Source of the DNA: a virus | Lineage: Duplodnaviria > Caudoviricetes | Reading direction: 5' to 3' (one strand) | Virus record (IMG/VR): IMGVR_UViG_3300030095_004573 | Coordinates: 1-26,514 of that record | DNA: 26,514 nucleotides | Shown here: one piece after another, positions 4,710 through 11,417 of the stretch | Numbering within the stretch: the stretch's first letter is position 1 | How the letters are laid out: each line of letters starts with the position of its first letter | Position numbers and translations under genes: made by a program | Notes under the pieces: generated by a model | What the model was told of the DNA's origin: nothing | Databases searched by the model: none | What the model saw: only the letters and a program-made list of their open reading frames with translations

Positions 4710-6023
4710 TTAATCGTCAGGAAGAATGATAGATGACATTACACGCTTTCTATATTCTTCTTTAGATACCCATTTCAGATAGTGATTCTTATGGGTTTCA
4801 ATATCGTGGCCCATTGCCAAAGCAGCCTGAGAAATATCAACGTGTTTAAATCTTGGATCTGTTGCCAGTCTTATGGCGTAAGTGTGTCTCAGGTCATAGC
4901 ACCTAATTTGTTTTTCAATCGTTTCTGGCTGATGTTGTCCTCTTGCGTCAGGAACACTAGCGGCCCATTCAGGTAAGACTTGCCTCAATCTGTCACCAAT
5001 AAATTCTCCAAGCTTTTTATTGTTCATGCAAATTCCCTGATCAGTTGGATCTTTTGAATCCCAATCTTTTGATGGATCATGTTGGCTAACTATTTTGGGT
5101 TTTGCTATTTCATGCAATTGTTTTTGGCATTCTTCAAATCTGTTCTTTAGGCCATAGCGCACAATCCAGGATTTATATAAAGGGAAGACCCAATGCTCAT
5201 ATTTAGATTTTGTTCTCCAATAGCCAGGGACATAAACCCAACCAAATTGAATACCTTCTTCTTTGTTTTCTTCTGTGATATTAGAAACCCAATGAAGCTC
5301 ATGATTCCTCAATCCGTAATTCATAAGCATGGCCAAACACCATTGCTCTAGTTTGTATTTAGGCCATAAGTTGTCCAAATATTTTTCAGCTTCCTCTTGA
5401 GTTGGGATTCCTCTAATTTCAACTTTCTTTCCGCTGGTTAATTTGTTTTGGCTGTTAATCCTTTCATTGTGGAGATTTCTAAGGTCTTGATATTGCTTTT
5501 CTGTTAGCCAAGTAGGTTCCTGATTTTTATTATCTGCTTTTTTTAGAGCCTTAATTATTTGCTTGATAGTATCTAATCTATTTCTGCAAGCACTAGACCC
5601 AAGCTTTTTAATTGTTACCCAGTTCTGTATAGCATCAAAATTTCTAGGAATATCATTTCTTTTTAAGTCATTCAATCCAGCCCAAAGGTTAACGGTTGAA
5701 CCTTCTTTCATTCTTAAAGGCCAATCATCCTTGCAAGCTTTTTCTATTTCTGCCCATGAAGGGAGAATTGTTTTTGTAGTTTCTTTTTTGTCAGTTGTTA
5801 CTCCTGCCCATTCTTTTTGGTCAGTAAGAATGCAGGCATCAAAAACTTTATTTATATCAATAGGATTATCAGTTCTTAATGGCTTACATGAAATCCTTGT
5901 TTTGGCTATTTGATCTCGAACATATATGAAAGGAGACTTGGAATCTTTGTCTAATCTCCATCTTGTTCCAGCTCTTTTTAGATCTTTTTTGTATTCAGGC
6001 CAAGTTCTAAGAATTAAGGCCAT
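4710..6023 (-). CDS. int: Tyrosine recombinase (integrase)
   Basis: Catalytic R (YGLRNHEL), K (RTKSK), HxxxxR (LRHTYAIR), H (MGH), Y (NHYLKW); adjacent to attP. Start set at ATG 6023 (MALILR) because the longer ORF start at 6074 runs through the att repeats. Confidence 0.93.
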   Translation of the reverse strand: MALILRTWPEYKKDLKRAGTRWRLDKDSKSPFIYVRDQIAKTRISCKPLRTDNPIDINKVFDACILTDQKEWAGVTTDKKETTKTILPSWAEIEKACKDDWPLRMKEGSTVNLWAGLNDLKRNDIPRNFDAIQNWVTIKKLGSSACRNRLDTIKQIIKALKKADNKNQEPTWLTEKQYQDLRNLHNERINSQNKLTSGKKVEIRGIPTQEEAEKYLDNLWPKYKLEQWCLAMLMNYGLRNHELHWVSNITEENKEEGIQFGWVYVPGYWRTKSKYEHWVFPLYKSWIVRYGLKNRFEECQKQLHEIAKPKIVSQHDPSKDWDSKDPTDQGICMNNKKLGEFIGDRLRQVLPEWAASVPDARGQHQPETIEKQIRCYDLRHTYAIRLATDPRFKHVDISQAALAMGHDIETHKNHYLKWVSKEEYRKRVMSSIILPDD

Positions 6024-6026
6024 TTT

Positions 6027-6052
6027 AAAACTCGTAAAAAACTCGTAAAAAA
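6027..6052 (+). repeat. Left arm-type tandem repeat (CTCGTAAAAAA x2), putative Int arm-binding sites
   Basis: AAAACTCGTAAAAAACTCGTAAAAAA; the same tandem recurs in direct orientation at 6272-6291. Confidence 0.75.
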
Positions 6053-6056
6053 TCTC

Positions 6057-6090
6057 CCCAAGTATACCCATCATTACCCAACTTAACCCA
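6057..6090 (+). repeat. 10-bp-phased (A)CCCA repeats
   Basis: CCCA ends at 6060, 6070, 6080 and 6090. Confidence 0.65.
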
Positions 6091-7276: not shown

Positions 7277-8056
7277 ATGCCTGTAGCTTGTTCCTCGACG
7301 GCTTTAACTGGCCAAGAGGGTTCTATTTATTTTTCCCCAGCGGGTACAAAATGGTGTCTTAAGGATTACACAGATTTTCCTTCTGGCGCTGGTGGTGTAA
7401 TTGTTCCATCAAATCATGACTTTAGAGTTAATGATCCTGTGAAATTCACAGTGGTTGGAACTGCAACTCTTGATGGCAACCTTACAGCGGGTACTACCTA
7501 CTACGTGATAGCAGTAACAGCAACAACAATAAAAGTTGCAACTGCTGTTGGTGGGACAAACATCGCTCTAGCTGGTAGTGGAGGTACTGGATCAGCAGAT
7601 AAATCTGGACATATAAATGTTCAGTATTCAGCAGCGGCGGCTGTTGCCCAAGTAAGGGAATTTTCTGTTGATATTGAAAGGGAAACTCTAGATGTAACAA
7701 CGCTTCCAGCGGGTGTTGCTTCTGTTACTAAGTACGCTCCTTTCAGGAACACTCAGCCAGGTTATGCCAGTGGTAGTGGTTCAATGACTGTTTACTTTAC
7801 TGATAGCCAAACCAGTCTTGCAAATAGATTGTTGGGTAATGTTCTCTTGAAGTCTCAAGAGGGTGCTTCAGTTAAGCTCTATGTTGATTTAGTTGATAAC
7901 GGCTCTGGAGCTGTTGATGATACTAATTCAACTTATATAGATTCTGATGTTTCTATAACAGGGATGAGTTTAAGCGTTACTCCTGATGAAGCAACTACTG
8001 CTGAAATGAGTTTCAACCTTACTAATCCAAGGAAAATCTTTAGCACTACTTTGTAA
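7277..8056 (+). CDS. Major tail (tube) protein with an inserted beta domain
   Basis: GQEGSIYF...VAQVREFSVDIERETLDVTTL...GSGSMTVYF tube motifs; followed by a terminator, chaperone and tape measure. Confidence 0.88.
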   Translation: MPVACSSTALTGQEGSIYFSPAGTKWCLKDYTDFPSGAGGVIVPSNHDFRVNDPVKFTVVGTATLDGNLTAGTTYYVIAVTATTIKVATAVGGTNIALAGSGGTGSADKSGHINVQYSAAAAVAQVREFSVDIERETLDVTTLPAGVASVTKYAPFRNTQPGYASGSGSMTVYFTDSQTSLANRLLGNVLLKSQEGASVKLYVDLVDNGSGAVDDTNSTYIDSDVSITGMSLSVTPDEATTAEMSFNLTNPRKIFSTTL

Positions 8057-8089
8057 TAAGTGGTTAACTAAAAATAACCCCATCATTCT

Positions 8090-8115
8090 GAGCCTATTTT
8101 TTTATAGGCTTTTTT
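8090..8115 (+). terminator. Intrinsic terminator after the major tail gene
   Basis: AGCCTAT-TTTTTT-ATAGGCT-TTTTT. Confidence 0.8.
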
Positions 8116-8159
8116 CTTGTCTAAAATTAATTTGTTAGACATTTCTAGGTCATGTTTAA

Positions 8160-8222
8160 CCGTATGGAGATGTCGCTACTTCATACGGACAATTGGGGGC
8201 TTATATCCATGCCCCCTTTTGT
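8160..8222 (+). ncRNA. Candidate two-hairpin RNA element (sRNA or structured leader)
   Basis: Stems CCGTATGGAG/CTTCATACGG and GGGGGC/GCCCCC plus TTTT; loops complementary to 8261-8267 and 8281-8287. Confidence 0.5.
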
Positions 8223-8280
8223 TATGGATTACTCCTAACGAGGGCTATATAATTTAATTAAGCGACACCTTTATTTTTTT

Positions 8281-8667
8281 ATGGATGCACTTGATGAGTT
8301 GAAAGCTGCCTGCTCGATGGCAACAGTAAGGAAGGAAATTGCCTTACCAAATGGAAAATTATTTGAGTTTTATATGACTCCAATGACCTTGGCAGAAAGA
8401 TCAAGGGCTCAAAAGATGAGCAAAGAAAATGATACAACTGATTTTGCTTTGAGACTTTTGGTTGATAAGGCAATGAATCAAGACAATGAAAAGCGCTTTC
8501 ATATTGGTCATTTGCCAGGATTAAGAAATGAATTACCAGCTACTTTGGTTGAGAAACTGATGATGGCATTGATTGGAGAAGATGAAGAAGATGAGGAGGT
8601 GCAAAAGGATCTAAATATCAAAAGCGTTAGCAAAGAGCCTAAGAAAAGACGGTCCACTCCTGGCTGA
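8281..8667 (+). CDS. Tail assembly chaperone (gpG-like)
   Basis: 128 aa between tube and tape measure genes; acidic C-terminal patch. Confidence 0.85.
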   Translation: MDALDELKAACSMATVRKEIALPNGKLFEFYMTPMTLAERSRAQKMSKENDTTDFALRLLVDKAMNQDNEKRFHIGHLPGLRNELPATLVEKLMMALIGEDEEDEEVQKDLNIKSVSKEPKKRRSTPG

Positions 8668-8815
8668 ATTAGTAGTTGCCAAAGAACTTGGTTATACGTT
8701 ATTTGAACTTAGAGAGAAAATGACACAGGAAGAGCTGCTGATTTGGCACGCCTATTTCCAAATACAAAAAGAAGAAGAGGACAAAGTTATGAATAAAAGC
8801 AGAATGCGACGATAG
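8621..8815 (+). CDS. Frameshift extension of the tail chaperone (gpT-like), +1 frame
   Basis: KALAKSLRKDGPLLAELVVAKELGYTLFELREKMTQEELLIWHAYFQIQKEEEDK... matches the gpT pattern AxELGxTxxELxxxMTxxExxxWxAYF; overlaps the gpG 3' end. Confidence 0.8.
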   Translation, partial: KALAKSLRKDGPLLAELVVAKELGYTLFELREKMTQEELLIWHAYFQIQKEEEDKVMNKSRMRR

Positions 8816-8846: not shown

Positions 8847-11417
8847 TTGGCTGAGCAAACCCTGTTATTAAAGATATTAAGTTCGGGTGCTGAACGTAAA
8901 TTAAAGCAGCTCGAAGATAAGATGAACGCCTTTGAAAAGGCGGCAAGAAAAGCACAGGGAACATTACCGAAAACAAATAAGCAAATAAAAGACACAGGTA
9001 AGGCCGCCAATGAGTCGGCAAAAGGGATTGGCAACTTACAAAAAAAACTACTTGGATTAGGCAAGACCATTGCAGTAGGCGCTGGGGTGATGACCTGGTT
9101 CAAAGGTTTTGCAGAAGCTGATAGAGCATCTGGAGCTGTAAGAACTTTGGGAGTAAATGTTGAGGAATTAAAGAAGAAATTATTTGATGTTTCTGTTGCG
9201 TCTGGAAACTTAAGAAGTCAAACAGAATTGTTAGCAGCTTCTTATGATGTTGCATCCGCTGGATTTAATAGCGCTGCTGATATAAGCAAAATCCTGGCAG
9301 CTTCTGTTGATGGTGCTGTTGGTGGTATGACAACGATGGCAAAAGTTTCTGATGCAGCCACTTCTGTTATGAACACTTATGGAAAAAGTGCTGATGATGC
9401 TAGGGGTTTAATTGATGGATTTATACAAACACAGAATGACGGTAAAATCATCCTTGATCAATATGCAAGCCAGATTGGACGTTTGGCTCCTATGGGTGCA
9501 GCGGCTGGAGTAGGTATTCAGGAATTAAATGCTGCAATTGGTGCGATAACAGCTACAGGTTTACCAGTTGAACAAACATTCACTGGTTTAAAAATGGTTC
9601 TTCAGGGAATTGTTAGGCCTACAAGTGAAGCTGCTGCCTTGGCCAAAATGCTTGGAATTGAATTTAACGCCTCGGCTTTAAAAAGCAAAGGTTTGGCAAA
9701 TGTATTGCAAGACATGATTGATAAGACAGGAGGGAATACTGAAGCAATGGGCAGAATGTTTGGAAGCGTTGAAGCGTTAAATGCTTTCTTACCTTTGGTC
9801 AATGATGGCTTAGTTAAGTTCAATAAGAATTTAGATAATCAAAAAAATGCTTCTGGAGCTGCTGCCGAGGCTGCAAAAATAATGAGTGGAACAGTTGGGC
9901 AAGCTCTGGGAAGAGTTGCTGATGGAATGGGAAATATTATTAGAAACTTGGATTATGTAGGTGTTGCTTTCAAATATGTCTTGTCAATAGTTAATGAATT
10001 TATTCAAGGCTTTTTGAAAATGCCTAAATGGTTCCAAATTGCTGCAACTTCTGCTGTTGCTTTAAGTCTTGGTCTATTGGCTTTAGGCCCAGCGGTTGGA
10101 GTTGTAATGGCTGTATTTAAAGGGATGATGGCATTTGCAATTCCTTCATTAGTTACATTTGCAGGTGCAACATTGGCGGCTGTTGGTCCTTGGTTGTTAT
10201 TAGCTGCTGGAATTACAGCGGCGGTTGTTGCAGTAAAAAGCTTTTTTGATAAAAAGAATCAATTTAAGGGAGCAAAATTAGACGATTTGATTGCTAGTGA
10301 AGATGGAGGCAAACTAAATAAAGCCTTAGAGGAAGCTGATAAAAGGATTCAAAAGTTAAGAGATAAAATGGCCGATGTTTCTAATTACAAAGGTCAAGGT
10401 GGAAAAGGAAAATCAAAGAATGATAAAAATCAATTAGCTGAATTGTTAGCAGCAAAAGCAGAAATAGAGAAAGCTATGGCAGCTTTAGAAAATACAGCGG
10501 CTGATAAAATCGGTGGGAAAGGTGGAATAAAAGAAGAAACTGATGCTTATTTAAAAGCAAAAGCAGCATTAGCTGAACTAACAAAAGGTTCAGCTAGTGA
10601 AGGTGAAAAGTTATTCCAACAATTGGTGCAGGAAAATGAAATGTTATTAGCCAAGCTTGATGGAACAGAAGCACTTAAAAAATTAGAAAGAGATAGATTG
10701 GCCATTAAGTTAAAAGCTGCTGGATATGATGATGATGAGATTAAATCAATTTTAGATAAGATTGATAAAAATAAAAAGCTTCTTTCTGCTGCAGAAAAAT
10801 TAAAAGATTTATGGAAGTCAATTGGAGATGATATTAAGTCTGGAGTCGTTGATGGAATTAAAGCAGCGATTACTGGAGCTAAATCTTTTGGTGAGGTGAT
10901 GTCAAATATTCTTGGACGTATAGGAGATAAATTATTGAATATGGGGATAGATTCAATATTCAGTAATTTGGGTGGTGGTGGTGGATGGTTAGGTAAATTA
11001 TTTGGCGGTGCAGAAGGTGGATTAGCTAGAGGAGGAATTTCATCTAAAGCCTTTGCCCAAGGTGGTGTTGCTACTGGTCCAACTCTTGGCCTTGTTGGTG
11101 AGGCAGGAGAAGATGAATATATGATTCCTTCCTCTAAGATGGCTGGGGCAATGCAACGGTACTCAGCAGGCGCTAGAGGTCAAGCTGTTATCCCTGGAGG
11201 AGGAACTGTTGCAGGTGGAACTGGAATGCCTGCCACATCTACAACAGTCAACTACACAGGCCCAGTGCTTTCATTTAATAGTGAATCTTATGTCCCTAAA
11301 TCTGCTATCCCAGAAATCATAAATAGCGCTGCTAGACGAGGCGCACAAGAAGGACAATCAAAGGTCTTTAATCAGCTTAAAAACTCTAGAAGTCAAAGAT
11401 CAAGGATAGGATTATGA
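8847..11417 (+). CDS. Tail tape measure protein
   Basis: 856 aa, Ala/Gly-rich helical; TP901-like core, central hydrophobic segments, C-terminal FAQGG...VGEAG.DEYMIP motif; TTG start. Confidence 0.95.
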   Translation: MAEQTLLLKILSSGAERKLKQLEDKMNAFEKAARKAQGTLPKTNKQIKDTGKAANESAKGIGNLQKKLLGLGKTIAVGAGVMTWFKGFAEADRASGAVRTLGVNVEELKKKLFDVSVASGNLRSQTELLAASYDVASAGFNSAADISKILAASVDGAVGGMTTMAKVSDAATSVMNTYGKSADDARGLIDGFIQTQNDGKIILDQYASQIGRLAPMGAAAGVGIQELNAAIGAITATGLPVEQTFTGLKMVLQGIVRPTSEAAALAKMLGIEFNASALKSKGLANVLQDMIDKTGGNTEAMGRMFGSVEALNAFLPLVNDGLVKFNKNLDNQKNASGAAAEAAKIMSGTVGQALGRVADGMGNIIRNLDYVGVAFKYVLSIVNEFIQGFLKMPKWFQIAATSAVALSLGLLALGPAVGVVMAVFKGMMAFAIPSLVTFAGATLAAVGPWLLLAAGITAAVVAVKSFFDKKNQFKGAKLDDLIASEDGGKLNKALEEADKRIQKLRDKMADVSNYKGQGGKGKSKNDKNQLAELLAAKAEIEKAMAALENTAADKIGGKGGIKEETDAYLKAKAALAELTKGSASEGEKLFQQLVQENEMLLAKLDGTEALKKLERDRLAIKLKAAGYDDDEIKSILDKIDKNKKLLSAAEKLKDLWKSIGDDIKSGVVDGIKAAITGAKSFGEVMSNILGRIGDKLLNMGIDSIFSNLGGGGGWLGKLFGGAEGGLARGGISSKAFAQGGVATGPTLGLVGEAGEDEYMIPSSKMAGAMQRYSAGARGQAVIPGGGTVAGGTGMPATSTTVNYTGPVLSFNSESYVPKSAIPEIINSAARRGAQEGQSKVFNQLKNSRSQRSRIGL

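Follow-up and report, generated by a model that had tools for sequence, protein, structure and literature searches.

The tail gene locus

The window, by which we mean the whole stretch of 26,514 nucleotides analysed here (IMG/VR record IMGVR_UViG_3300030095_004573, Caudoviricetes), is a linear record of an ocean virus, 56% complete. The genes for the tube (major tail) protein, the tail assembly chaperone and the tape measure protein follow one another on the same strand, and the gap between the first two holds a terminator-like hairpin, two predicted promoters and a series of hairpins (Table 1). Matches to phage S-2L and to PHROGs, as well as the gene order, agree with the identities that the original prediction had assigned to the tube and chaperone genes. 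The window's own tube protein has no PHROG match; its homologue matches phrog_1407, major tail protein. Similarly, the window chaperone has no Pfam TAC match; a homologue matches phrog_344, tail assembly chaperone, and one relative matches the putative chaperone of S-2L.

The host is probably a cyanobacterium, since the nearest cultured relatives are the cyanophages S-2L, KBS-S-2A, MED4-184, P-HS2, MED4-117 and S-H1. A search of prokaryotic genomes for relatives of the chaperone found none, and hence no prophage link to a host. Elsewhere in the window, a 454-aa ORF with neither a PHROG nor a Pfam match lies between the terminase and neck genes (4710-6074, minus strand), and capsid and portal genes are absent from their usual place.

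Table 1. Genes and sequence features in and around the tube-chaperone gap of the window
Feature	Positions	Strand	Basis or remark
Major tail (tube) protein gene	7277..8056	+	43% identity to the S-2L major tail protein
Terminator-like hairpin and T run, 3' of the tube gene	8090..8117	+	terminator scan
P1, predicted -10 box TAAAAT	8122..8127	+	putative; predicted +1 at G8134
Hairpin 0, extra 5' stem-loop	8134..8160	+	only in the window's subgroup and L081
Hairpin A, 9-nt loop	8161..8187 (8160/61-8187/88)	+	folding; clade alignment
Seed in loop A (UGUCGCU)	8171..8177	+	complementary to 8261-8267; compensatory changes
Hairpin B and T4	8195..8220 (stem-loop 8195-8216, loop 8201-8210)	+	conserved stem, variable loop
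P2, predicted -10 box TATAAT of the chaperone/tape-measure promoter	8248..8253	+	putative; predicted +1 at A8260
Target AGCGACA	8261..8267	+	+2 to +8 of the predicted P2 mRNA; 13 nt before ATG
Tail assembly chaperone G, 128 aa	8281..8667	+	phrog_20784; between tube and tape measure genes
T part of the GT fusion	8615..8815	+	+1 frame; putative; candidate shift site AAA AGC at 8620-8625
Tape measure protein gene	8847..11417	+	PHROGs phrog_991, E 4e-44

A loop that varies together with the chaperone leader

Related loci were fetched by chaperone alignment (the best 80 out of 112 viral loci and, of 84 metagenome loci, likewise the best 80). A tube gene together with a chaperone ATG was present in 139 sequences, window included; grouping these at 85% identity gave 66 clusters, and 63 tube-chaperone intergenic regions remained after removal of L090, L143 and L225, whose gaps exceed 400 nt. 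The 24 nt before the ATG were searched for perfect complements of at least 7 nt in the upstream intergenic sequence; this direct search was used instead of minimum-energy folding, which missed GGUGACUC loops as the fold zips into the loop. Such loop-leader matches occur in 32 of the 63 clusters; with the leaders shuffled, the figure is 5.1%. L226, which belongs to these 32, was set aside as it has no box and no hairpin apex, and three clusters with 5-6 nt matches in the same layout (L080, L169 and L206) were added by hand, giving a total of 34 modules that were thus hand-picked after the match search and are phylogenetically related. The clade alignment referred to below comprises 17 sequences of the low-GC clade of the window.

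The original prediction proposed that the loop of hairpin A pairs with the chaperone leader, and its coordinates for the seed, the target and the TATAAT box were right; the loop spans 8170-8178. In the window, a 7-nt match within 8188-8290 is obtained from 0.9% of loop shuffles. Across the phages, about ten different seed/target pairs vary together: AGCGACA, AGCGACTC, ATGGCGA, GCGACAAT, GAGTCAC, GATTCAC, GAGGTCA, CACGCACA, CCCACAC and AGCAACCACCA each come with a matching loop. The cognate duplex has a mean energy of -12.1 kcal/mol and, when leaders of other groups are offered, ranks at the top in 31/34 modules. Within the clade alignment, 84% of the positions of the loop-target helix are paired, and three of its eight pairs have changed on both sides. 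The match measures 5-11 nt across modules, and the seed sits at a hairpin apex in all modules except one (33/34), five of them carrying it in the last hairpin rather than the first.

Behind a TAnnnT-type box, AGCGAC occurs only at the target in all five related records, and no second target for the seed was found in 10 partial records. A pattern search with the GAGTCAC form returned 61 matches (52 distinct), 36 of them before chaperones of the window's family and 3 before actinophage-type chaperones.

The pairing of loop A with the leader exceeds chance, is conserved and has undergone compensatory changes. This covariation across divergent phages strongly supports an RNA on the same strand that pairs through a loop with the leader of the chaperone gene.

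Hairpins and the second loop

The segment 8134-8222 folds at -33.6 kcal/mol (z = -4.9; none of 200 shuffles was as stable) into three hairpins. Two had been predicted and both are real; the third, at 8134-8160, had been overlooked. The latter shows paired changes in L012, L013 and L015. In the clade alignment, the stem of hairpin A is 91% paired with double changes in two pairs, and that of hairpin B is 97% paired with double changes in three.

The original prediction further described a switch in which loop B alternates between an ATGGAT at 8224-8229 and the chaperone start codon at 8281. Both sites are indeed present in the window, and 1.4% of loop B shuffles yield two 6-nt matches (13% yield one). 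The loop B of L081, different in sequence, likewise matches the stretch that follows the T run. Against such a switch, the central pairs between loop B and the start codon are kept in only 3, 4 and 5 of the 17 clade members, among which no compensatory change was found, and in none of the other 33 modules is a loop complementary to the start codon over more than 4 nt. Pairing of loop B with the stretch after the T run, which involves 6 nt in the window and could extend over 8 nt in L081, was not seen in the remaining clade members. Pairing of loop B with the start codon is thus dropped, and alternation between the two sites appears highly improbable. What survives of the predicted antisense or pseudoknot switch is a same-strand RNA pairing with the chaperone leader; the two-loop design with its alternative pairing does not. 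The module is real and conserved, has one functional-looking loop and, as read from its sequence, would represent a variant of antisense or pseudoknot control in an undescribed setting.

Hairpin B had also been taken for a terminator. The four T are present, and the hairpin was not called by the terminator scan, the limit of which its loop exceeds. At least five T within the 8 nt that follow the last GC stem occur in just 5/34 modules, a slight undercount as the pattern absorbs up to one T. Hairpin B is probably a weak terminator at best. A generic pattern of hairpin B followed by TATAAT gave 43 matches, of which 16 correspond to the module and the others to different contexts.

Two other classes of element were considered and rejected. 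A ribozyme or riboswitch does not fit, as there is no conserved core and loop B and even the seed vary. A type I toxin-antitoxin system does not fit either: the only frame has 4 codons (ATG..TAA) and several relatives have ATA in place of its ATG. This frame lies in a stretch conserved in the clade before P2 (8224-8247), and it is followed by a word that resembles a Shine-Dalgarno sequence, an almost perfect TAAGGAGG, behind which no start codon lies. The conserved stretch may be a promoter or activator site.

Predicted promoters P1 and P2

All 34 modules share one layout. The P1 box is followed, after 6 nt, by a purine with which the first stem begins; two or three hairpins then lead to the P2 box, and a further 6 nt separate this box from the target at the predicted +1. 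The base after the P1 box and its 6 nt is G in 33 modules and A in one. It opens the first stem exactly (offset 0) in 31/34 modules, compared with 2/21 of the other boxes listed. Where the first hairpin carries the seed (27 modules), the distance from the P1 box to the seed is 17-22 nt; the background frequency of such boxes is 2% per position. In 28/34 modules, P1 comes after a terminator-like T run, and a hairpin with a T run resembling that of the window is also present in relatives; P1 is kept in six loci where it abuts the tube stop codon, with no terminator before it. Refolding with 25 extra upstream nucleotides placed the first helix at the predicted P1 start in only 5/34 modules and so gives no independent support.

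P2 is a family-wide feature, found in KBS-S-2A too. A TAnnnT box stands 19-29 nt before the chaperone ATG in 34/34 modules and in 27/29 module-less clusters, with a purine 7 nt after it in 33/34 and 26/27, respectively. The simple promoter scan, which requires a -35 match, listed neither P1 nor P2; we infer that both are active promoters. In three module-less, low-GC phages (L132, L210 and L216), an in-frame ATG coincides with the predicted P2 start, which suggests that these chaperone mRNAs are leaderless.

The target is tied to the start of the predicted P2 transcript. The 5' edge of the duplex lies between -2 and +2 of the predicted P2 start in 34/34 modules, exactly at +1 in 19. The original prediction had placed the target near a predicted mRNA 5' end; it had missed this fixed position, the TAAAAT box and thus the predicted promoter of the RNA itself. 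The distance from the end of the duplex to the ATG spreads over 5-15 nt, which we take to be inside the 30S footprint, and the predicted P2 leaders measure 15-22 nt. The folded part reaches to 0-4 nt from the P2 box in 33/34 modules.

A target that follows +1 and not the AUG is what would be expected of an RNA that protects the mRNA by binding its 5' end, as RoxS and FasX do, and a precedent exists (PMC5419742). In the same source, the yflS -10 box lies 44 nt from the start codon; with leaders of just 15-22 nt, a duplex together with the bulky RNA would occupy the ribosome footprint. Protection of the 5' end is unlikely for these reasons. Repression looks more likely than stabilization of the RoxS/FasX type, since the duplex would fall within the ribosome footprint of such a short leader.

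Distribution and insertions

About half of the family has no module. No GAGTCAC/GCGAC-type target was found in any of the 29 module-less clusters, although P2 is mostly kept. On the chaperone tree, the resolution of which is limited, the absence of the module needs five changes, at least two of them forced by well-supported branches, and the module-less L100 nests among GAGTCAC phages. Cultured relatives have no module either: the gap of S-2L is 4 nt long, and that of KBS-S-2A holds a terminator and one box. A covariance model of the low-GC clade detected neither the high-GC modules nor the actinophage elements, S-2L or KBS-S-2A, so that common descent of the module groups is unsupported by sequence.

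In L143 and L093, a 0.9-kb homing-nuclease-like gene separates the loop from its target, and the match is intact. The two loci share about 70% DNA identity and their nuclease proteins are 53% identical; the P2 box of L093 is non-canonical. The flanks of L143 are 86% identical to the uninserted L234, so that its insertion may have occurred recently. A search for further loci with a nuclease insertion found none beyond these two. The nuclease gene, which lies between the RNA and P2 (L143 560-1490; intergenic in L093), has its own box. Its leader is structured as well: the bases just upstream of the predicted start might pair with those before the ATG, as in T4 I-TevI. Extra ORFs also occupy the tube-chaperone gap of L090, L195, L120 and L225, pointing to an insertion hot spot; that of L225 is long and rich in Pro, Glu and Ala, and the module downstream of it is intact.

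Beyond the family, the Microbacterium phages Finalfrontier and Dismas carry a hairpin between the major tail and chaperone genes, and its loop matches two sites, one of which spans the ribosome-binding site. In actinophage gaps (L289 790-905, L290 820-905, L229, L248 and L285, the first two from Microbacterium phages), a loop is complementary to two or three downstream sites, among them the chaperone ribosome-binding site. The position and layout shared by the elements of the window's family and those of Microbacterium phages may be partly convergent.

A predicted G/GT frameshift

The T part of G/GT lies in the +1 frame, not -1, in 13 valid cases, all with AAA AGY at the junction: the window (8612-8815), L022, L076, L080, L081, L082, L087, L088, L138, L149, L152, L178 and L206. 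In 8 of the 13, the +1 frame opens only at AAA AGY, which suggests a +1 (or -2) shift at this site. In eight other clusters, T is in the -1 frame. The simple motif search found no T part in 43/66 clusters, and two of its matches were false.

Proposed mechanism and alternatives

We tentatively favor the following mechanism. The folded RNA would start at its own promoter P1, and a stable RNA of about 55-115 nt would be released, either by weak termination at hairpin B (in the low-GC clade) or by trimming of read-through RNA to its stems. The released RNA would pair in trans with the P2 mRNA, its 9-nt loop capturing about seven nucleotides at the start of this message, and the resulting duplex would block ribosome loading and thus damp or delay G/GT synthesis. 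Read-through RNA that is not released would fold the identical helix in cis as an H-type pseudoknot. The effect would be repressive, placing a threshold on chaperone output. We give a little less than even weight to such damping of chaperone translation by a separately promoted RNA that binds the 5' end of the mRNA, in trans with this cis fallback.

Pairing in trans would account for the dedicated promoter P1, for the confinement of the pairing to the first bases of the P2 transcript, and for the intact match across the nuclease gene in L143 and L093. Several observations stand against it. Most modules have no U-tract and the structure runs almost up to the P2 box, so that transcripts from P1 probably include their own target and could pair internally. 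A single metatranscriptome contig from an RNA library spans 8068-8391 unbroken, at a depth of 3.4; it may stem from DNA or from read-through, and contigs show neither ends nor strand. The insertion loci number only two and are possibly recent. Finally, a 2-nt spacer with a 7-bp helix is textbook H-type pseudoknot geometry, and exactly this combination is found in 16/34 modules.

This geometry, the missing U-tract and the proximity of the structure to P2 would suit a purely cis-acting arrangement, in which the read-through RNA from P1 or the tube gene folds into an H-type pseudoknot that hides the chaperone start, and the P2 RNA, which has no loop, is translated. The loop-target distance of just 36-91 nt and the matches of Microbacterium phage loops, at the same position, to the chaperone ribosome-binding site point the same way, and T4 genes e, soc, 49 and I-TevI offer a precedent (PMC3014915). 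A dedicated promoter for a silent mRNA would be hard to explain with no switch signal, however, and the pairing stays within 2 nt upstream of the P2 start, even though the bases beyond are part of the P1 RNA. Its conservation across the 0.9-kb insertions also argues against exclusive cis action, which we regard as rather unlikely, though it comes next after repression in trans.

Control might instead be exerted on transcription, through pairing of the nascent RNA that causes pausing or termination before the chaperone ATG, or through occlusion of P2 by transcription from P1. P4 CI RNA terminates transcription by pairing (PMC4825925), and a U-rich run directly follows the target in most of the low-GC clade. 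Such a U-rich leader may merely reflect base composition, and high-GC modules have no U-run after the target. Control at this level seems very unlikely.

Tail assembly depends on protein ratios, and to our knowledge the setting of chaperone output relative to the tube protein is poorly studied. In lambda, the G:GT ratio of 30:1 has been described as crucial (PMC5009743). If repression in trans proves correct, an sRNA cassette would add to the G/GT frameshift a threshold for the output of G/GT and of the tape measure protein. The module is a concrete candidate device that comes with natural compensatory variants, and the half of the family that has no module can serve as a control. As a regulatory layout, a neighboring same-strand RNA whose seed targets +1 would be unusual. 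The similar loop-leader matches in cultured Microbacterium phages suggest a general theme and a tractable system. On a broader scale, and with more doubt than confidence, we can envisage that long-tailed phages have repeatedly evolved an RNA layer dosing the tail chaperone, in this cyanophage-like family as a self-contained, mobile sRNA cassette that acts in trans and reads the first nucleotides of the P2 mRNA.

Comparison with known regulatory RNAs

As the original prediction had anticipated, no described family was recognized: Rfam gave no match in the window at E<=5 and no gathering-score match in 40 related loci, where only unrelated sub-threshold matches, none of them C4 or isrK, appeared. 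No description of the element was found in the literature searched, most subscription papers lying outside that search, nor by a term search in the main texts of PMC5737381 and PMC2864571. Fremin et al. (2023) list ten unnamed candidate structures within 25 bp of tail-chaperone (Phage_TAC) genes (Supplementary Table 3 of PMC10690425, the main text of which contains neither "tail" nor "chaperone"); the four candidate rows examined belong to proteobacterial phages. The motif could figure as an unnamed candidate among the 8,495 of that study or in the Weinberg supplements.

In its working, the element is reminiscent of CI and IsrK, of leader occlusion in T4, and of RoxS and FasX (PMC4825925, PMC3014915, PMC5419742 and PMC10111431). 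First, P4 CI, P1-P7 C4 (RF01695) and Gifsy-1 IsrK are, as here, same-strand, non-overlapping phage RNAs that pair with the adjoining transcript, and IsrK occurs in a short and a read-through form from one promoter (PMC4825925). The comparison with C4 and CI drawn by the original prediction thus holds for the logic and fails for the loops and targets, the Rfam result, the 5' end and the gene context. C4 and CI have two targets, seqA and seqC, whereas the element has one conserved seed for one target and a loop B that is not conserved; their 5' end is processed, whereas that of the element is predicted to be primary, at its own promoter. They lie in the immunity/Bro region (kil, icd-ant) and not between tube and chaperone genes, and the target here consists of the first bases of a second promoter's mRNA.

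Second, T4 e, soc, 49 and I-TevI have a promoter that lies after the 5' pairing strand but before the start codon, as is the case for the predicted P2 in 34/34 modules. The T4 leaders combine a simple hairpin with a phage late promoter, in contrast to the loop-mediated helix, the two sigma-70-like boxes and the dedicated upstream promoter of the element. As to the T4-type sequestering of a Shine-Dalgarno sequence or AUG in the helix, the helix here ends 5-15 nt before the AUG and the leader of the window has no Shine-Dalgarno sequence. Third, the likeness to RoxS-yflS and FasX-ska resides in the position of the duplex edge, which in 34/34 modules falls between -2 and +2 relative to the predicted +1; RoxS and FasX are unlinked trans-acting sRNAs that stabilize, whereas the RNA gene is here adjacent to its target and the leader very short.

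IS10 RNA-OUT, a stable hairpin whose loop captures the 5' end of an mRNA (RNA-IN) and blocks translation, provides another parallel; it is encoded on the opposite strand and is fully complementary, as opposed to a same-strand RNA with a seed of 7-8 nt (matches of 5-11 nt). The element lacks the tested membership features of C4/CI, of cis-antisense RNAs and of 3'-UTR-derived sRNAs. Finally, OppZ and CarZ are operon-derived RNAs that pair with the message of their own operon and inhibit its translation, a logic close to the one proposed here; they are cut by RNase E from the operon 3' end (PMC7398697), whereas the present RNA has its own predicted promoter, usually located behind a terminator.
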